Notes under the pieces: model-generated
Told to the model about the DNA's origin: nothing
Seen by the model: the letters and a program-made list of their open reading frames with translations, nothing else
Database searches by the model: none
In this document: positions 15,750 through 37,745 of the stretch, piece after piece
Layout of the letters: each line of letters begins with the position of its first letter
Numbering within the stretch: position 1 is the first letter of the stretch
Origin: Candidatus Nomurabacteria bacterium
GTDB lineage: Bacteria > Patescibacteriota > Minisyncoccia > Phycocordibacterales > UBA9973
Reading direction: 5' to 3'
Length of the DNA: 64,000 bases
Assembly: GCA_020631955.1 (NCBI GenBank)
Contig: JACKGL010000002.1
Location: 141,860 to 205,859, forward strand
Position numbers and translations under genes: made by a program

Positions 15750-15772
15750 ACACTCCCTGCGGAGTGTTTTTT
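15750..15772 (+). terminator. Rho-independent terminator after tRNA-Lys
   Basis: ACACTCC-CTGC-GGAGTGT followed by TTTTTT. Confidence 0.65.
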
Positions 15773-15776
15773 GCAT
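15760..15776 (+). repeat. 17-bp direct repeat, copy 1 (CGGAGTGTTTTTTGCAT)
   Basis: Identical to 15900..15916. This copy is the 3' half of the tRNA-Lys terminator. Confidence 0.8.
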
Positions 15777-15899
15777 CATGTCCGAGCCGGAGCAATGTTT
15801 TTGTTTTAAACGAAGCGAGAAGGCAAAAACTGCGAGGCGGGCCCGCGAGATTTTTTCGTCAGAAAAAATACTTGTGGGGACACAAGGACAAAATACCTA

Positions 15900-15916
15900 C
15901 GGAGTGTTTTTTGCAT
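15900..15916 (+). repeat. 17-bp direct repeat, copy 2 (CGGAGTGTTTTTTGCAT)
   Basis: Identical to 15760..15776 but lacks the 5' half of the hairpin. Confidence 0.8.
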
Positions 15917-15945
15917 TGTGCCCTAGTGTGGGTTAGTATTCTAGT

Positions 15946-21523: not shown

Positions 21524-21561
21524 TAAGAAATTTTTTAATGTGCCCTCGCCAGGAATCGAAC
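21524..21561 (+). repeat. 38-bp perfect direct repeat, distal copy (displaced tRNA-Arg 3' end plus trailer)
   Basis: TAAGAAATTTTTTAATGTGCCCTCGCCAGGAATCGAAC, identical to 22185..22222. Confidence 0.9.
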
Positions 21562-22184: not shown

Positions 22185-22222
22185 TAAGAAATTTTTTAAT
22201 GTGCCCTCGCCAGGAATCGAAC
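22185..22222 (+). repeat. 38-bp perfect direct repeat, tRNA-proximal copy
   Basis: Covers the last 21 nt of tRNA-Arg(GCG) (22202..22222) plus 17 nt of trailer. Confidence 0.9.
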
Positions 22223-31142: not shown

Positions 31143-31694
31143 ATGGCACAGACAGTAAATGTTAATTTTACGCCGGTAAACCTAGCTTCAAGAAAGAATC
31201 TTGATATGAAAGCTGGAGATACAGTAAAGGTGTATTCAAAAATTCAAGAAAAAGGAAAGACACGTCTTCAGGCATTTGAAGGAGTGGTACTTGCTCGTAA
31301 GCACGGTGGTGAACCAGGAGCTACTTTCACAGTAAGAAAGGTGGCTAGCGGTGTAGGTGTAGAGAGAGTTTTTCCACTTTATTCACCTATGATAGACAGA
31401 ATAGAGATAATAAAGAGAAGCAAGACCAGAAGAAGTAAGCTATACTTCATACGTGAAAAAGCTGCTAAAGAAATAAGAAAGAGAATGAAAGCTTTTGCTT
31501 TTGCTCAGTCATCAGTAGATTTTATCGAAGAAGAACCAGAAGTAGTAGAAGAAATAGCAGAAGAAACCGAAGCAATACCAGAAATGGCGGCAGAAGAAAC
31601 TCCAGTTGAAGCAACAGCTGAAGAAGCGGCCCCAGAAGAGAAGACAGAAGAAGTACCAGCTGAAACAACTGAAGAAGAAACAAAGTCTGAATAA
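31143..31694 (+). CDS. rplS: 50S ribosomal protein L19 with an approximately 65-aa acidic C-terminal extension
   Basis: GDTVKVYSKIQEKGKTRLQAFEGVVLARKHGG...FTVRK core, then an E/A/T/P-rich tail. Confidence 0.9.
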   Translation: MAQTVNVNFTPVNLASRKNLDMKAGDTVKVYSKIQEKGKTRLQAFEGVVLARKHGGEPGATFTVRKVASGVGVERVFPLYSPMIDRIEIIKRSKTRRSKLYFIREKAAKEIRKRMKAFAFAQSSVDFIEEEPEVVEEIAEETEAIPEMAAEETPVEATAEEAAPEEKTEEVPAETTEEETKSE

Positions 31695-31696
31695 TT

Positions 31697-31720
31697 AAAA
31701 TCCCCGAAAGGGGATTTTTT
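31697..31720 (+). terminator. Rho-independent terminator
   Basis: AAAATCCCC-GAAA-GGGGATTTTTT. Confidence 0.7.
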
Positions 31721-31734
31721 GGTATAATTTTTTT

Positions 31735-32019
31735 ATGAGAAATATAAAACAATATAAAGAAAAACTTGTCGATGAAGGATTTAAACATGTATTTGAGTGG
31801 AGAGATAGACCAGGTACGATCTACGAAATACACGCGCACAAAGACCGTGTATCTTTTTATCTTCTCGACGGTGATCTAACTTTTGAATTTGATGATGAGA
31901 AAGTACATATACAAGCTCCGACTAGATACGATGTGGCGCCCGGCAGAGAACACAGTGCTATTGTTGGAAAAAACGGAGCTTACTATGTGGTAGGAGAAAT
32001 GATAGAAGGGGACTCTTAA
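31735..32019 (+). CDS. Small cupin-fold protein
   Basis: 94 aa; H-x-H...E and late H pattern (YEIHAHKD...REHSA). Confidence 0.55.
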   Translation: MRNIKQYKEKLVDEGFKHVFEWRDRPGTIYEIHAHKDRVSFYLLDGDLTFEFDDEKVHIQAPTRYDVAPGREHSAIVGKNGAYYVVGEMIEGDS

Positions 32020-32026
32020 TTTTTTT

Positions 32027-32258
32027 GTGTCTTTATTGTACCAAGTTAGAACCTATTTCCAAAGTCGAACCTAATCGCACATCCGTGCGCTAAAGCGCCT
32101 CTGTGCGAAGCACAGAGCTTTTCCAAAGGAAAAGGACGGATATGCGAAATGCAAATGCGGAACGCGAGCGGAAAGAATTTTGCGGAGGACTGGGGGTCTG
32201 GGGGAAAGGGCTCCGCAAAATTTCCGCTTCGTGTGCTTCGCTGTTTTTTGGCTGGGCG
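32027..32258 (+). repeat. IR-A, left copy (232 bp)
   Basis: Checked base by base: the reverse complement of 33980..34211 is identical over all 232 nt. Confidence 0.95.
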
Positions 32259-32407
32259 GGCATTAAGAAAAGAAATACAATATTGAAATTTTGGCAAAGC
32301 CAAAATACATTCTTAGTTTGTGCTTGACCCACCCTCCCATTCGCGCACAAAAATTCTGCTCCCAAAAACAACTAGAAAAAGAGAGCAAAAAATGTTAAAA
32401 TTGCACT

Positions 32408-33973
32408 ATGGAAAATAATGGTTTCAATAAGATTATAAACAACATTAACGAACAAAAAGGAAATTTTGGTGAGCCCCTTATTGAAAAACTTGGTCTAAAA
32501 ACTGGCAAGGAAGTCTCTCTGGTTAAACGTTCTCTTTCCGAAAATTCTGCCATTGGTGTTGGACAAAAAATTGAGGGCAAACTTATCCGTGATGTTCATG
32601 TTGGGCTACCTATTGAATTAGAAAATTCAAACACAAGTCCAATCAAAGAAATAAAAGAGGAACAAGGAAAATATTTTGTAAAAACACTTACTTCTGTGTA
32701 TGAACTTTTTGTACAAGCACAAAAAGTGGGAAATTTTGAGAAAATTTCCCACTTACAAGATGAACTAAAACAAATTGAATCTCATTTAAGTGAACAACCT
32801 GAATCAATCCAAAAAATGTTTCAAGAAATGAAAGACAAATTTTATTCTTCGGTTGAAATAGATAATAAAAAATTTATGTTCACCCAATTAAATGGAAATG
32901 ATGTAATGTCTTGGGTTGAAGATAAAAAAAATCCAGGCAAATGGAAAACTCGTCTTTTCAGGTTTTCTAGTTCAGATCACCAATGGAAATCACTGCCCGG
33001 AGAACGCGATGACGGAAGTTATATGAAAGGTGATGAGGATAGTCCTTTGCATCATTATGTGCAAAGTGCGAAATTAGATAAGAGAATTTATAAATTGATA
33101 AATTCTTTGCCTCAAAAATATAATCATTATTCAGCACAAGAATATTTACCCACTCCCCCGTATGGAGATACCAAAGGTCATTTTTGGAATGAATTTGAAT
33201 TTAAGGAAAATTACCAAACATTAAAAAATAAAGAATGGGCTTCCTACCAAGACTTTTGCCAGAGGTTTTTTAAGGGTTATGAAAGATTTGTGATGGGTGC
33301 TGATGGTTTCAGAAATTTTACTTTAGACGGTGGTCTGTATAAATGGATGAAAAATCTTGAAAGCATTGCAGAGTTTAGAAATATAAAAACTGAACTAGAA
33401 AGATTAAACACTAATCCAGAATATGCTGAGGAGTTGAAGCAAAGCAGTCTTTGGCGAATGGAAAAATTTATCAATGATAAACCGGAAGTTAAACACTTTG
33501 CTGAAGTATACAAACAAAATATTGGTTCTTACGTTGAAAAATGTTTTAAAGCAAGATTTCCTGAAACAATGATGCCTGATTTCAAAAAATGTGTTGATAA
33601 ATACGATAAGGTTGATATTGCTGAACAAGCACAAAAAAATAATATTCATATTGAGGAATACAAGGTAAATAATCCTGAAGGAGACGAATTAGTCTTTGCT
33701 ATGGCATATGACGATAAAGGTCGAGTCTATATTGATAATATTTATGACCCAAGAGTAGAAATTAGTGATTATGGTATTCCAAGCGAAATAGTCCAAATGG
33801 GACATTTGGTTTACAAGCCAGAGGATTATAGACAACAAACATATGCAATTCCTGAAAAATATTTAAATGATAAAAATAGCCACAAGTATATTGACATAAG
33901 TGCATTGTGGGAAAATATCCCAGTGATTAAAAATTTCAAAGAAGAGTTAAGGGTGCGTGGTGTTTTGAAATAA
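32408..33973 (+). CDS. Orphan cargo protein (521 aa) enclosed by IR-A
   Basis: Uninterrupted ORF, AT-rich unlike the flanking repeats, with no signal peptide or recognised motif. Its stop lies 6 nt before the right IR-A copy. Confidence 0.6.
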   Translation: MENNGFNKIINNINEQKGNFGEPLIEKLGLKTGKEVSLVKRSLSENSAIGVGQKIEGKLIRDVHVGLPIELENSNTSPIKEIKEEQGKYFVKTLTSVYELFVQAQKVGNFEKISHLQDELKQIESHLSEQPESIQKMFQEMKDKFYSSVEIDNKKFMFTQLNGNDVMSWVEDKKNPGKWKTRLFRFSSSDHQWKSLPGERDDGSYMKGDEDSPLHHYVQSAKLDKRIYKLINSLPQKYNHYSAQEYLPTPPYGDTKGHFWNEFEFKENYQTLKNKEWASYQDFCQRFFKGYERFVMGADGFRNFTLDGGLYKWMKNLESIAEFRNIKTELERLNTNPEYAEELKQSSLWRMEKFINDKPEVKHFAEVYKQNIGSYVEKCFKARFPETMMPDFKKCVDKYDKVDIAEQAQKNNIHIEEYKVNNPEGDELVFAMAYDDKGRVYIDNIYDPRVEISDYGIPSEIVQMGHLVYKPEDYRQQTYAIPEKYLNDKNSHKYIDISALWENIPVIKNFKEELRVRGVLK

Positions 33974-33979
33974 CTGCCT

Positions 33980-34211
33980 CGCCCAGCCAAAAAACAGCGA
34001 AGCACACGAAGCGGAAATTTTGCGGAGCCCTTTCCCCCAGACCCCCAGTCCTCCGCAAAATTCTTTCCGCTCGCGTTCCGCATTTGCATTTCGCATATCC
34101 GTCCTTTTCCTTTGGAAAAGCTCTGTGCTTCGCACAGAGGCGCTTTAGCGCACGGATGTGCGATTAGGTTCGACTTTGGAAATAGGTTCTAACTTGGTAC
34201 AATAAAGACAC
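33980..34211 (-). repeat. IR-A, right copy (232 bp, inverted)
   Basis: Perfect inverted copy of 32027..32258. Confidence 0.95.
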
Positions 34212-34238
34212 CAGTATTGAACTTAGCGGTTGAGAACC
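34185..34238. other. attP-like quasi-palindromic site centred on the IR-A/IR-B junction
   Basis: GGTTCTAAC (34185..34193) and GTTGAGAACC (34229..34238) are symmetric about CAC at 34209..34211, with further partial arm symmetry. Confidence 0.55.
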
Positions 34239-34355
34239 AACCAAGGAGTGGGCGGCACAAAGTGCCGCCCACGCTGTTTCCCCTGATTTTCCAAACGCAT
34301 TTGGAGCCGCGCCTGCGGCGCGGCGCACTGTTTTTTCGCCAAGAAGCAGGTTCGA
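34209..34355 (-). repeat. IR-B, left copy (147 bp, inverted; includes a duplicate of the recombinase 3' coding end)
   Basis: Checked base by base: the reverse complement equals 35932..36078. It overlaps IR-A by 3 nt. Confidence 0.95.
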
Positions 34356-34437
34356 AATCAGAATGCAATTTTGGCATAGTATTTGCTTTGGATACAAAAA
34401 GAATTTTTGTTTGAAAATATTTTTGCTATACTGGAAA

Positions 34438-34530
34438 TGTTGTAACCAATTATTAGTTAGTCAGCAGAAAGGGCTATTCCAGATATCTTGACTAACGTTG
34501 AGGTTACAACACTGGAGTGGCCCTTTCTGC
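34438..34530 (+). promoter_or_regulatory. Structured recombinase leader with interleaved perfect complementarities
   Basis: Pairings: A 34438..34447 with 34502..34511 (10 bp); B 34456..34463 with 34489..34496 (8 bp); C 34464..34474 with 34520..34530 (11 bp); D 34478..34482 with 34512..34516 (5 bp). It ends 15 nt before the ATG. Confidence 0.5.
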
Positions 34531-34545
34531 TTGAAGAAAAAATAT

Positions 34546-36111
34546 ATGCAAAAATTCTTTTTGTATGCTCGCAAGAGCACCGATGTCGAGGATAAACAAG
34601 TGTTGAGTATCAAAGCTCAATTAACAGAGTTGCGCGCTTTCGCCAAAAATGAAAAGTTGGAAATTGTTAATGAGTTTGTAGAAAAGCGTACCGCTAAAGT
34701 TCCAGGTCGCCCCATTTTTGGCGAAATGATGAGACGAATTGAGAAAGGTGAAGTAAGCGGAATATTATCATGGCACCCCGATCGTCTGGCGCGCAATTCT
34801 GTGGACGGCGGACAGATAATCTACTTTCTCGACATCGGAAACCTTGCGAGCCTCAAATTCCCTAGCCACTGGTTTGAAAACACGCCACAGGGCAAATTCT
34901 CGCTGTCCATGGCATTTGTCCAAAGCAAATACTATGTAGATTCTCTTTCCGAGAACACGAAACGCGGACTTCGCCAAAAAGTGAGAATGGGTATATTTCC
35001 AAGCCAAGCGCCAGTGGGATATTTGAATGATAGCCGAACAAAAACGATTGTAGTTGAAAAGAAAAAATCTCGCATTGTGCGTTTGGCTTTCGAGCGATAT
35101 GTAAAAGGCAATCAAAGGTTAGAAGATATTGCAGAATTTTTGGCGAAGTCCGGTATTACAACCCGAACCGGAAAGAGAATCTCCAAAACCAAAGCGTCTT
35201 TTATCCTATCAAATCCGTTTTATATCGGCTTATTCAAATACAGTGGTGAACTCCACGAGGGGAAGCACGAGCCAATCATTTCAAAGAAACTTTTTGATGA
35301 AGCACAGGAAATGCTAAAACTTCGTGGTCAACCCGAAAGAAAACCACAAAATGAACCTCAACCATTTTGCGGTCTCATTTCCTGTGCTTCTTGTGGAATG
35401 ATGATAACTGGCGAACACAAATTCAAACGGCAGAAGAATGGGAATGTCCACGAGTACACATATTATCGCTGTACGAAAAAACGAAAAGATTTTATCTGCA
35501 AAGAATCTGCCGTTAGAGAGGAAGAAATGAATCGCCAGTTATCATCCCTCATTCAAAAAGTTTCTTTGCCTAAAGACTGGGCGGAGGAATTATTGAAAAT
35601 GGCGGAAAATGAACACAAAAACTCCGCCCAGTCTTTAACTGCTTGTGTGAAAGAGAAAGAAACGAAAATATCTGAAATTTCACAAAAGCTAGAGCGACTT
35701 CTTAACGGATATTTAGACCAAATTGTTGACGAGCAAGATTATCGAAATCAAAAAGCAAAATTATTGTCCGAGAAGAAGTCGCTTCAAGAAGAAATTTCAG
35801 ATTTTTCACACAAGCAGAATGATTGGCTCGAACCGATGAAAGAATGGATAAAAGACGCACAATCCTTGGACAAAATTGCTTCTGATGATGACCTTTTTGC
35901 AAAAAAGGTCAAAGCCAAAGAAATCTTTGGCTCGAACCTGCTTCTTGGCGAAAAAACAGTGCGCCGCGCCGCAGGCGCGGCTCCAAATGCGTTTGGAAAA
36001 TCAGGGGAAACAGCGTGGGCGGCACTTTGTGCCGCCCACTCCTTGGTTGGTTCTCAACCGCTAAGTTCAATACTGGTGCGCAGGAGAGGACTTGAACCTC
36101 CACACCCGTAA
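34546..36111 (+). CDS. Large serine recombinase
   Basis: Resolvase-type N-terminus YARKSTDVEDKQVLSIKAQ (catalytic Ser) and HPDRLARN, a recombinase domain, the zinc ribbon CGLISCASCG...YYRC, and a coiled coil. The last approximately 60 codons lie in IR-B and the tRNA. Confidence 0.85.
   Translation: MQKFFLYARKSTDVEDKQVLSIKAQLTELRAFAKNEKLEIVNEFVEKRTAKVPGRPIFGEMMRRIEKGEVSGILSWHPDRLARNSVDGGQIIYFLDIGNLASLKFPSHWFENTPQGKFSLSMAFVQSKYYVDSLSENTKRGLRQKVRMGIFPSQAPVGYLNDSRTKTIVVEKKKSRIVRLAFERYVKGNQRLEDIAEFLAKSGITTRTGKRISKTKASFILSNPFYIGLFKYSGELHEGKHEPIISKKLFDEAQEMLKLRGQPERKPQNEPQPFCGLISCASCGMMITGEHKFKRQKNGNVHEYTYYRCTKKRKDFICKESAVREEEMNRQLSSLIQKVSLPKDWAEELLKMAENEHKNSAQSLTACVKEKETKISEISQKLERLLNGYLDQIVDEQDYRNQKAKLLSEKKSLQEEISDFSHKQNDWLEPMKEWIKDAQSLDKIASDDDLFAKKVKAKEIFGSNLLLGEKTVRRAAGAAPNAFGKSGETAWAALCAAHSLVGSQPLSSILVRRRGLEPPHP
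35932..36078 (+). repeat. IR-B, right copy (147 bp)
   Basis: About 57% G+C by hand count (84 of 147). It contains perfect hairpins GCCGCGCC-GCA-GGCGCGGC and GTGGGCGGCAC-TTT-GTGCCGCCCAC. Confidence 0.95.
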
Positions 36112-36160
36112 GGGCACATCCACCTCAAGGATGCTTGTCTACCAGTTTCAACACCTGCGC
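36074..36160 (-). tRNA. tRNA-Leu (anticodon GAG), class II
   Basis: 87 nt including CCA. It aligns arm for arm with E. coli-type tRNA-Leu: acceptor GCGCAGG/CCTGCGC, anticodon loop TTGAGGT, long variable arm, T arm GGAGG-TTCAAGT-CCTCT. The last 5 nt lie inside IR-B. Confidence 0.9.
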
Positions 36161-36176
36161 AAGACAAAGTGCTTAG

Positions 36177-36205
36177 ATATTAACAAAAGAACACTTAATA
36201 ATCAA
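36177..36205 (-). promoter_or_regulatory. tRNA-Leu promoter (TTGATT-17-TAATAT on the minus strand)
   Basis: -35 at 36205..36200 and -10 at 36182..36177, about 17 nt upstream of the tRNA 5' end. Confidence 0.5.
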
Positions 36206-36249
36206 ACTGCTTTTTAGAGCTCTGTTTTCGTGATATCATATAAGGTATT

Positions 36250-36588
36250 ATGTTGAAAGATAAGAAGTGTATCCCTTGTGAAGATGAGAATGCAAAAGCT
36301 ATAGATCCATTGCTTTTGGACGAGTATTTACAAGAGATAAATGATTGGGAAATATCAGATGATAAAAAAAGTATTAGCAAGAAATATGTTTTTAGAGATT
36401 TTGTAAAGTCATTAGAATTTGCCAACGCAGTAGGAGATATCGCAGAGATAGAAGGACATCATCCAGATATCAACATTTCTTACAACAAAGTGAAGCTCAC
36501 TCTTACTACACACAACATAGGAGATCTTACAGAAAACGACTTTATATTAGCGGCCAAGATAAACGCACTAGATAATATATTTATATGA
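36250..36588 (+). CDS. Pterin-4-alpha-carbinolamine dehydratase (PCD/DCoH)
   Basis: 112 aa; EGHHPDI motif and ...LTTH....LTENDF. Confidence 0.85.
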   Translation: MLKDKKCIPCEDENAKAIDPLLLDEYLQEINDWEISDDKKSISKKYVFRDFVKSLEFANAVGDIAEIEGHHPDINISYNKVKLTLTTHNIGDLTENDFILAAKINALDNIFI

Positions 36589-37580
36589 TATTAGCAATAA
36601 CAAACGTAATACTAGGTATAATAGGCTTTTGTATAGCCTTCTATATTTTTCATAAGAAAAGTCACGAGACAGCGCTGGTGTGTCCTATAGGAAGTGACTG
36701 TGACGCAGTGGTGCACTCAGAGTACTCACATTTTATGGGTGTATCTGTAGAAAGGCTCGGTATGGTTTATTATCTACTTATTACGATCTTTTATGCTTTT
36801 GCTATCTTTTTCCCAACCCTTACAAATGGATTGATACACTTTATCATGCTTGGTATTACCTTAGGATCTTTTCTATTTTCTGCATACTTGGTATCTGTAC
36901 AAGGTTTTGTTATACACGAATGGTGTGCTTGGTGTTTAGGAAGTGCAACTGTTTCTACAATGATATTTTTAACCAACTTCTTATTGGTAGACTTGGAGGT
37001 GACTTACTACCTTGTACAATATAAGGGGCTCATAGTAATTCTTCATGGAGTAGCTGCCGCTATAGGGGTAGGAGGAGCTACTATTACCGATACACTGTTC
37101 TTCAAGTATCTTTCAGATAAGAAGATCTCTAAAGAGGAAGCTAGCACACTTAAAACCCTTTCTACTTTGATATGGTTTGCTCTGGGACTATTGGTGCTTA
37201 CTGGCGTAGGACTTTATATGCCAGAAAAAGAAACATTACTACAAACACCAAAATTCTTGGCGAAGATGATAGCCGTAGCTGTGCTTATAGTAAACGGTGT
37301 AGCCCTCAACTTCATAGTTTCTCCTAAGATAACAAAGATAAACTTCGACGATCAAGAACCTATCAGAGATATAAAAAATGATATACTTCGCCACGTAGCT
37401 TTTGCTTTAGGGGCTGTATCTATTATCAGCTGGTACTTTGTATTTATACTTGGGTCTTTAAGAAGTACAAACATGACTTTTGATAACATAATACTTATTT
37501 ATCTACTTGCTTTAGTTATCGGGGTATTGGGGAGCCAATTTTTTGCCGAACACATAAGAAGAAAGGATTCTCTAAAATAG
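36585..37580 (+). CDS. Vitamin K epoxide reductase (VKOR) family membrane protein with extra C-terminal TM domain
   Basis: CPIGSDCDAV loop cysteines and a CAWC active-site motif in a TM helix. Confidence 0.65.
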   Translation: MILAITNVILGIIGFCIAFYIFHKKSHETALVCPIGSDCDAVVHSEYSHFMGVSVERLGMVYYLLITIFYAFAIFFPTLTNGLIHFIMLGITLGSFLFSAYLVSVQGFVIHEWCAWCLGSATVSTMIFLTNFLLVDLEVTYYLVQYKGLIVILHGVAAAIGVGGATITDTLFFKYLSDKKISKEEASTLKTLSTLIWFALGLLVLTGVGLYMPEKETLLQTPKFLAKMIAVAVLIVNGVALNFIVSPKITKINFDDQEPIRDIKNDILRHVAFALGAVSIISWYFVFILGSLRSTNMTFDNIILIYLLALVIGVLGSQFFAEHIRRKDSLK

Positions 37581-37633: not shown

Positions 37634-37706
37634 GGTGTCTATAGTGTAATGGTTAGCACTAGAGTTTGTGGAACTCTCAGTTCGGGTTCAAATCCCGATA
37701 GACACC
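37634..37706 (+). tRNA. tRNA-His (anticodon GUG) with encoded G-1
   Basis: G-1 plus acceptor GTGTCTA/TAGACAC, discriminator C, anticodon loop TTGTGGA, T arm TCGGG-TTCAAAT-CCCGA. Confidence 0.9.
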
Positions 37707-37745
37707 CAAAGTGAACATTTTATATCAAATAGTGATTTTCTAAGT

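Follow-up and report, generated by a model that had tools for sequence, protein, structure and literature searches.

The closest described systems to the locus treated here are the phage-type large serine integrases (A118/LI, Bxb1, phiC31), the tycheposons and classical tRNA islands, the invertible segments of phage P1 and Salmonella, and the yeast 2-micron plasmid. The locus lies in a stretch of 64,000 nucleotides of a Candidatus Nomurabacteria genome (assembly GCA_020631955.1, contig JACKGL010000002.1, positions 141,860 to 205,859 of the forward strand), termed the window below. It is a compact element at window positions 32027-36078, made of a cargo module and a recombinase module and lying next to a tRNA-Leu(GAG) gene. 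The site at 34185-34238, where the two modules meet and which a preliminary description had singled out as quasi-palindromic, is likely the intact attP-type joint of this element, inserted by its large serine recombinase (LSR) at the extreme 3' end of tRNA-Leu(GAG). Comparison with related loci establishes conservative insertion at tRNA 3' ends, a two-module architecture with modular and variable cargo, a crossover placed within 3 nt and a broad range of target tRNAs.

With the phage-type large serine integrases the element shares the Resolvase, Recombinase and zinc-ribbon domains together with a coiled-coil region, a tiny crossover core and arms of ~25 bp; as in LI integrase, the putative recognition box of the host site lies nearer the centre than that of the element site (by 4 bp here and 5 bp in LI). 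It differs from them in its target, which is the generic tRNA 3' end (17 isoacceptors) and not one locus, in its unconserved attB right half, strongly asymmetric attP and lack of a visible directionality factor gene, and in that an intact, inverted attP-type joint is kept, the modules are bounded by inverted repeats (IRs) of 114-435 nt and an open reading frame (ORF) crosses the crossover. Tycheposons and classical tRNA islands are likewise small cargo elements beside tRNA genes in streamlined genomes, with variable cargo and with different elements at the same tRNA site in one species (bioRxiv 10.1101/2020.12.28.424599). They use mostly tyrosine recombinases and one tRNA each and have partial-tRNA direct repeats of ~40 nt (bioRxiv 10.1101/2020.12.28.424599), whereas the present element has a serine recombinase, a core of 3-5 nt, no duplicated tRNA fragment and many target tRNAs. 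With a serine enzyme and only 3 nt repeated, it does not group with the classical tyrosine-integrase islands.

The C segment of phage P1 (Cin) and the H segment of Salmonella (Hin) are inverted by small serine invertases, which act on symmetric 26-bp sites and require an enhancer and Fis. In those segments, as here, the recombinase is in or beside an IR-flanked segment, the crossovers are at the outer repeat tips and adjacent segments share a site; the present element differs in its large serine recombinase, its asymmetric sites and a strong orientation bias across genomes. The yeast 2-micron plasmid is a eukaryotic replicon with the tyrosine recombinase FLP. Like it, the predicted excised circle would consist of two unique regions split by inverted repeats, each with a recombinase target; neither a circle nor a replication function was observed here. 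No description of this element family was found in the full-text literature, whose coverage was incomplete.

The element, its recombinase and its three joints

The main features of the element are as follows.

32027..36078, unstranded: whole inserted element, ~4.05 kb, cargo module plus recombinase module (from IR boundaries and junction sequences)
32020..32063, minus: J1, attR-type joint, cupin-side flank TTTTTTT followed by GTG and the reverse-complemented P arm (37 nt) (from junction sequence and relatives)
32027..32258, unstranded: IR-A left arm, 232 nt, 100% complementary to 33980-34211
32408..33973, plus: cargo ORF, 521 aa
33980..34211, unstranded: IR-A right arm, pairs with 32027-32258
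34185-34238, plus: J2, the flagged site, intact attP-type joint, P arm - CAC - P' arm (from junction sequence)
34209..34211, plus: crossover core CAC, equal to C72-A73-C74 of the target tRNA (minimal block common to J1, J2 and J3 here and in relatives)
34209..34355, plus: IR-B left arm (module b), 147 nt, 100% against 35932-36078
34546..36111, plus: LSR gene, Pfam Resolvase, Recombinase and Zn_ribbon_recom
35932..36078, minus: IR-B right arm, trailer and terminator for tRNA-Leu (from repeat search and terminator scan)
36074..36160, minus: tRNA-Leu(GAG), integration target (ARAGORN; Rfam 46.2 bits; sequence)
36076-36078, minus: J3, attL-type joint, tRNA arm plus P' (from junction sequence)

The LSR gene is enclosed by IR-B, and its product combines the catalytic resolvase domain (PF00239, 4.7e-20) with the recombinase (PF07508, 1.9e-18) and zinc-ribbon (PF13408, 3e-7) domains. 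The closest solved relative is the A118/LI integrase (E 2e-8), to which similarity is confined to the C-terminal domains of A118/LI. With 462+ aa, LSR domains and asymmetric sites, the enzyme and its sites are unlike the small invertases (~190 aa, helix-turn-helix domain, symmetric ~26-bp sites). Its reading frame passes through the right arm of IR-B and the crossover, and the stop codon is inside the antisense strand of the tRNA gene.

The element is bracketed by a direct 3-nt repeat, GTG at 32027-32029 and GTG at 36076-36078. The latter is the complement of C72-A73-C74, and the outer end of IR-B falls inside the 3' end of tRNA-Leu(GAG). IR-A and IR-B overlap by exactly the CAC at 34209-34211, and this middle copy is inverted relative to the direct GTG at both outer ends. 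The left flank consists of the cupin gene stop followed by TTTTTTT, and the right flank is the tRNA. Written in tRNA orientation, J3 reads tRNA arm-CAC-P', J2 reads P-CAC-P' and J1 reads P-CAC-AAAAAAATTAAG..., which is the leftover expected from a conservative 4.05-kb insertion into ...tRNA-CAC-AAAAAAA..., the sole difference being the extra internal P-CAC-P' of inverted polarity. With GTG directly repeated at J1 and J3, the full 4 kb acts as a single conservative insertion flanked by a 3-nt repeat; the attB of the tRNA-Leu site was reconstructed as GGACTCTTAATTTTTTT-GTG-CGCAGGAGAGGACTTGAACC. P' together with the core reads (CA)CCA, by which the CCA end of the tRNA is restored. The polarity of the core would allow deletion only between J1 and J3, and J2 paired with either of them would yield only inversion. 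An Rfam scan of 31500-36700 gave the tRNA as sole match, so that the repeats are not a known RNA family. The 521-aa cargo product has no match in Pfam or PADLOC, and annotation of the cargo as a defence system was dropped on the PADLOC result.

The LSR has >7,800 homologues, the top 120 of which are 73-88% identical and, where a source name is given, nearly all named as Patescibacteria/candidate phyla radiation (CPR) lineages. Across 80 genome loci the LSR gene is usually at a contig end, which indicates that the assemblies are broken by the repeats. In all loci for which sequence exists there, an IR-B-type repeat of 114-185 nt flanks the LSR; the inner end of the repeat is always at the same LSR codon, after residue 462. 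Its outer end starts with CACCA and abuts a tRNA 3' end: 39 of the 42 scored joints lie next to tRNAs found by ARAGORN, of 17 isoacceptors, and the tRNA end is within 0-2 nt of the end of CACCA. LSRs that are 91-98% identical occur at different tRNAs (e.g., Met-CAT versus Leu-TAG, Arg-CCT versus Ile-GAT). The layout of the element recurs in 16 fully resolved relatives, in which a second repeat pair of 150-435 nt surrounds the cargo, abuts IR-B with a 3-10-nt overlap and on the other side runs into native tRNA-downstream DNA (an A-rich stretch, a terminator hairpin or the following tRNA). The cargo of these loci is unrelated from one to another; examples are a phosphoenolpyruvate-utilising enzyme, an aminotransferase, a class II aminoacyl-tRNA synthetase, a methyltransferase, a zeta toxin and an LD-carboxypeptidase. 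The recombinase 3' end faces the tRNA in >90% of ~65 loci. In ~60 related Patescibacteria loci the right arm (CACCA...GAACT) lies against positions 72-74 of target tRNAs of these 17 isoacceptors, and the left arm abuts either this right arm or native tRNA-downstream DNA; likewise, the exact 27-nt P arm is present in >120 metagenome contigs, where it is followed by the P' arm ~35-45 times or by one of ~70 unrelated flanks that resemble DNA downstream of tRNAs.

The site had been described as an attachment site of a large serine recombinase whose symmetry centre coincides with the IR-A/IR-B boundary and the tRNA crossover point. Both statements hold: the site adjoins the LSR gene, the same joints recur in dozens of independent relatives, and the coincidence with repeat boundary and tRNA junction is found in the window and in those relatives as well. 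The crossover had been placed within the shared 3 nt, and the minimal block common to the joints is indeed CAC or CTC in the window and 16 relatives, a short core of the kind seen at LSR att sites, with direct GTG copies bracketing the composite. CTC was found only in elements at tRNA-Gly, so that the central core base follows the discriminator base of the target. C74 is kept in all 16 J1 joints, in 11 of which the next base is not C; on this count A73-C74 (34210-34211) is probably the exchanged dinucleotide.

Independent copies of the locus agree with these boundaries. The analysis assigned the window to GCA_041402165.1, and four other assemblies of the same strain (L002, L003, L009, L107) reproduce the element junctions. 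Logan unitigs (k=31) break off precisely 30 nt inward of each outer repeat end (32056 and 36049), which is the signature expected of true outer repeat boundaries. Two conspecific contigs (L094 from 1407, L095 from 979) agree with the window in the cupin flank and in the 37 nt of the P arm (32027-32063) but share no more of the element than these 37 nt, and their cargo differs. That cargo is a 194-aa ORF, whose repeat has, in its inner part, 88% identity to IR-A of contig L030.

In the proposed mechanism the LSR would insert the element at the 3' end of tRNA-Leu(GAG), with strand exchange inside CAC (tRNA positions 72-74). The long inverted repeats around the cargo and recombinase modules, which evolve in concert, would cause J2 to persist in the integrated element, inverted with respect to J1 and J3. 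The recombinase may read a GGTTC T-loop-like box, supplied by the real T-loop in the tRNA arm and set 4 bp farther out in the P arm; this spacing would correspond to the attB-versus-attP rule of the large serine integrases. The P arm would double as an outward promoter, and the P'/b arm would provide the tRNA CCA end and a terminator while carrying the 3' tail of the recombinase frame. Excision would proceed through J1 and J3, since only these two joints are in direct polarity, and the circular intermediate would have two inverted attP regions.

Arms of the internal joint and the apparent palindrome

The two halves of J2 and the adjoining module b contain the following features.

34175..34208, plus: P arm, T-loop-like box and outward promoter (highly conserved in 35 relatives)
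34176-34181 and 34195-34203, plus: outward sigma-70 promoter, -35 TTGGAA and extended -10 TGgTACAAT (from promoter scan)
34184-34193, plus: T-loop-like box AGGTTCTAAC in the P arm (from family alignment)
34212..34238, plus: P' arm, conserved GAACT at 34219-34223 and start of the hairpin 34228-34242 (from family alignment and folding)
34248-34272, plus: covarying hairpin in module b (from covariation)
34306-34336, plus: intrinsic terminator in module b (from terminator scan)
34348-34355 and 35932-35939, in both IR-B arms: invariant AGGTTCGA box, inner repeat boundary (from family alignment)

The palindrome had been described as two inverted copies of GGTTCT(C)AAC placed symmetrically about CAC. 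The motifs are where they had been placed (GGTTCTAAC at 34185-34193 and GTTGAGAACC at 34229-34238, with CAC at 34209-34211), and a recount of the inner arms gives the same 9 matches in 14. The symmetry is incomplete: motifs are present on both sides, but the arms measure 24 nt on the left and 27 nt on the right, which puts the outer motifs 3-4 nt out of register. Global alignment of one arm with the other gives a score of 5, the window background being -6.6 +/- 3.65; this score is reached by only 0.22% of 5,800 sampled window positions, and the resemblance is therefore better than chance in the window. To that extent a chance palindrome is unlikely, as had been argued, but the resemblance is not a property of the family: the same scores over 35 homologous joints have a median z of 0.41, with z>2 in only two. 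Dyad matching about the core in these joints is 0.31 when centred between C and A and 0.17 when centred between A and C, the background being ~0.25.

The right-arm motif GTTGAGAACC is a piece of a local hairpin, GGTTG-AGAAC-CAACC at 34228-34242; relatives have different covarying stems in its place, for example GGCTC..GAGCC and GGCTTT..AAAGCC. The view of the two GGTTCT(C)AAC copies as symmetric recombinase half-sites is not supported, as the right copy is out of register, unconserved and part of this hairpin; as conserved half-sites, the outer pair is excluded by the family analysis. An alignment of homologues, which had been suggested as a check on conservation of arms and core, retained the core (CAC/CTC) and the left-arm GGTTC box, with the right-arm motif replaced and dyad symmetry about the core absent family-wide. 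The palindrome is mostly incidental and largely particular to this window, and its outer part is not a conserved recognition feature. The best dyad conserved in the family, AGGTTC-N5-TGGT-N11-ACCA-N5-GAACT, spans 34184-34224 in the window and is centred at 34204, 5.5 nt left of the crossover. This dyad overlaps the -10 box of the outward promoter and may be an operator.

The left arm fares differently. In the family the P-arm box is AGGTTC(T/G)(A/G)A, and its start lies 24 nt ahead of the core; for the genuine T-loop box of the tRNA arms this distance is 20 nt. The zinc-ribbon motif of LI integrase occupies positions 16-24 in attP and 11-19 in attB, a 5-bp shift (PMC3783163). The left half-sites thus have a 4-bp box shift in the same direction and of similar size, and the right half-sites are without a comparable motif. 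The earlier statement that the arm lengths fit LSR geometry agrees with this, the left-arm GGTTC box being at a distance of ~17-26 bp from the centre and the T-loop box of the tRNA arm 4 bp nearer to it.

Part of the conservation has other sources. That of the left arm is at least partly due to the outward sigma-70 promoter, which in the main clade is conserved as TTGAAA-N16-TGgTAcAAT with its predicted start at the core. That of the right arm comes at least partly from the tRNA CCA end, the terminator module and the recombinase frame. The 6-bp core hairpin of the b arm covaries fully, with most pairs canonical in 38 of 38 loci. The LSR frame runs without a stop along the entire IR-B arm and past the core in 38 of 38 loci, against 14-24 for the other frames, and its stop codon is always beyond the crossover. 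As the ORF never ends within the element, the C-terminal residues and stop of the LSR depend on sequence past the joint. The AGGTTCGA box is under constraint at the nucleotide level, because the overlapping Ser-Asn-Leu codons almost never vary synonymously.

Several further observations concern these arms. The AGGTTCGA box is T-loop-like and marks the inner end of every IR-B arm, down to 64% LSR identity. An outward extended -10 promoter is present in both copies of the P arm, at 34176-34203 (plus) and 32062-32035 (minus). The promoter at J2 is predicted to start a structured RNA of ~125 nt at the core, ending at the 34306-34336 terminator, and this would be the same RNA that the tRNA trailer yields at J3.

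It is possible, though unlikely, that these other functions account for the site altogether, the quasi-palindrome being incidental, the left arm a promoter with a possible operator, the right arm tRNA trailer, terminator and coding sequence, and the true recognition determinants of the recombinase elsewhere or minimal (CACCA plus tRNA shape). The promoter conserved in the main clade and starting at the core fits such an explanation, as do the covarying hairpins and terminator of b, the coding of the S-S-I-L-V tail of the open frame by GAACT and CACCA, and the absence of a family-wide dyad about the core, the best one being that at 34204. It fits poorly with the GGTTC box, which stands in the promoter spacer, a normally unconstrained place, yet is conserved like the hexamers, is kept in clades whose hexamers differ, and imitates the one sequence that all target tRNAs share. 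The crossover at CAC is not disputed by this explanation.

Weighing of the proposed insertion and of its alternatives

The interpretation of J2 as an intact attP-type joint used by the LSR has to be set against a number of observations. J2 is without the dyad symmetry typical of LSR attP sites and is strongly asymmetric, and a quasi-palindromic attP of ~50 bp with two similar half-sites did not emerge across the 35 homologous joints. The attB right half is not conserved at all. Conservation of the P arm could come from the promoter alone, and that of P' from the CCA end, the terminator and coding constraints. The conserved module shows no evident recombination directionality factor, and the recombinase module has no conserved small ORF. 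A precursor circle with two inverted attP regions predicts recombinase orientations of ~50:50, versus >90% one way, a bias that would not be expected if two equivalent attP copies were used freely. The predicted empty site, a 26-mer, had no exact match in the JGI metagenomes, and among 48 contigs with the flanking cupin or pterin-dehydratase proteins every copy was occupied or broken at the repeats. No relative of the LSR was present in IMG/VR, nor was an excised circle found. Recombinase binding and catalysis at the site are entirely a matter of inference. The attP sequence of the element is known only as the internal J2.

A multiple-inversion switch of the shufflon or Hin/Cin kind, in which recombinase action at J1, J2 and J3 would invert the two segments (cargo and recombinase), with the long repeats as segment ends, is improbable. 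It would accord with the core polarity, which allows only inversion for J2 with J1 or J3, and with the position of the recombinase inside an IR-flanked segment, as for hin. Contigs with flipped cargo (L004) or a flipped recombinase module (L102, L030, L024, L027, L035) exist, and in L030 the flipped module is within a 149-kb contig. The orientations in L004 (cargo) and L102 (recombinase module) are no proof of inversion, since both are MEGAHIT k=141 contigs and the repeats of 147 and 232 nt exceed k; L101 was set aside as proof on the same grounds. L101 also mixes 97% and 100% identical halves and may be chimeric. Further, >90% of the ~65 loci are in one orientation, the outer half of J1 is unconserved, and attP x attL and attP x attR reactions are not carried out by canonical LSRs (PMC3783163). 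RecA-type recombination between perfect repeats of 147-232 bp would account for rare flips without the LSR.

A recombinase that swaps partners without a directionality factor, always joining a P' end to a tRNA-like 3' end, is a speculative idea of low probability. The P arm would then be a portable pseudo-tRNA end, consisting of the T-loop box and a promoter that starts where the trailer would begin. Cargo modules, with two pseudo-tRNA ends, and recombinase modules, with two P' ends, would plug together as alternating connectors. J2 would stay live after integration and could attack any of the ~40 genomic tRNA genes, with cargo shuffling and rearrangement of CPR chromosomes as results, and each event would rewrite the LSR C-terminus because the ORF crosses the core. 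Such swapping would explain recombinase modules between convergent tRNAs and cargo with P' on both sides.

Loci of both kinds were observed. Recombinase modules without cargo lie between two convergent tRNA genes in L024, L033, L044, L075 and L101; their arms are 83-89% identical in L024, L044 and L075, too diverged for repeat detection in L033 and ~97% identical in L101. They may stem from attack of the internal joint on a second tRNA or may be chimeric joins. In two metagenome contigs (L132 22-2435, L196 862-3615) a cargo module has P' arms on both sides with differing P' tips, as an excised circle or an array of alternating modules would give, though the pattern may also be an artefact of graph assembly.

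Separate insertion, side by side, of two transposon-like units with terminal inverted repeats, one with the recombinase and one a non-autonomous cargo unit, is very unlikely. In its favour, each unit has a perfect pair of terminal inverted repeats, the cargo units are variable and the recombinase unit conserved, and recombinase units without cargo occur between two tRNAs (L024, L033, L044, L075). But each unit is flanked by CAC...GTG, which is inverted, and conservative insertion by a serine recombinase with a non-palindromic 2-nt core must leave direct copies; direct GTG...GTG ends occur only around the composite. The two-tRNA loci have diverged arms (83-89%) and are maybe chimeric joins through a multi-copy repeat. 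Two independent transposons of this type are accordingly rejected because of the core polarity.

Mis-joining as the origin of the repeats and their abutment is hardly credible and was ruled out: the data are metagenome-derived and the repeats break most assemblies just upstream of the recombinase, but identical junctions occur in independent assemblies and in unitigs from many samples, and the same architecture is present in at least 16 metagenome-assembled genomes from different studies and assemblers.

Other features and implications for the family

The recombinase gene is preceded by a strongly structured leader.

34438..34535, plus: leader of the recombinase gene (fold -46 kcal/mol, z = -6.5)

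The leader hairpin ends ~10 nt ahead of the ATG. In three metagenome contigs (L110, L189, L217) the LSR match is split, with residues 1-78 at 70% identity and residues 79-472 at 38-41%, separated by a gap of ~1.1 kb, which suggests an insertion within the gene or a hybrid gene. A second, different LSR element (540 aa) lies just after the VKOR gene in L101 (4787-6409) and L102 (3459-5081); the matching position of the window holds tRNA-His (37635-37707) and no element. Elsewhere in the window, a perfect direct repeat of 38 nt (21524-21561 and 22185-22222), formed by the last 22 nt of tRNA-Arg(GCG) and 16 nt of downstream flank, brackets an insert of 661 bp with one ORF of ~165 aa and no integrase; it resembles a minimal islet targeted to a tRNA, of the classical type with direct repeats. 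Just downstream of tRNA-Lys, two copies of a terminator-like unit, CCTnCGGAGTGTTTTTTGCAT, are located at 15756-15786 and 15896-15926, 140 nt apart.

If the insertion of the element by its LSR at tRNA 3' ends is correctly understood, the family would be a very abundant minimal mobile element of CPR bacteria, consisting of one LSR and a swappable cargo cassette and entering the 3' end of almost any tRNA gene. Among serine-integrase elements there is no obvious parallel to this dual-IR architecture, in which an internal attP is kept. The enzyme would be a natural LSR that reads a generic feature (T-loop box plus CCA end) and not one locus, which would be relevant to programmable or broad-host integrases. 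For the organisms themselves, it would provide a concrete route of gene flow in tiny genomes with few known mobile elements.

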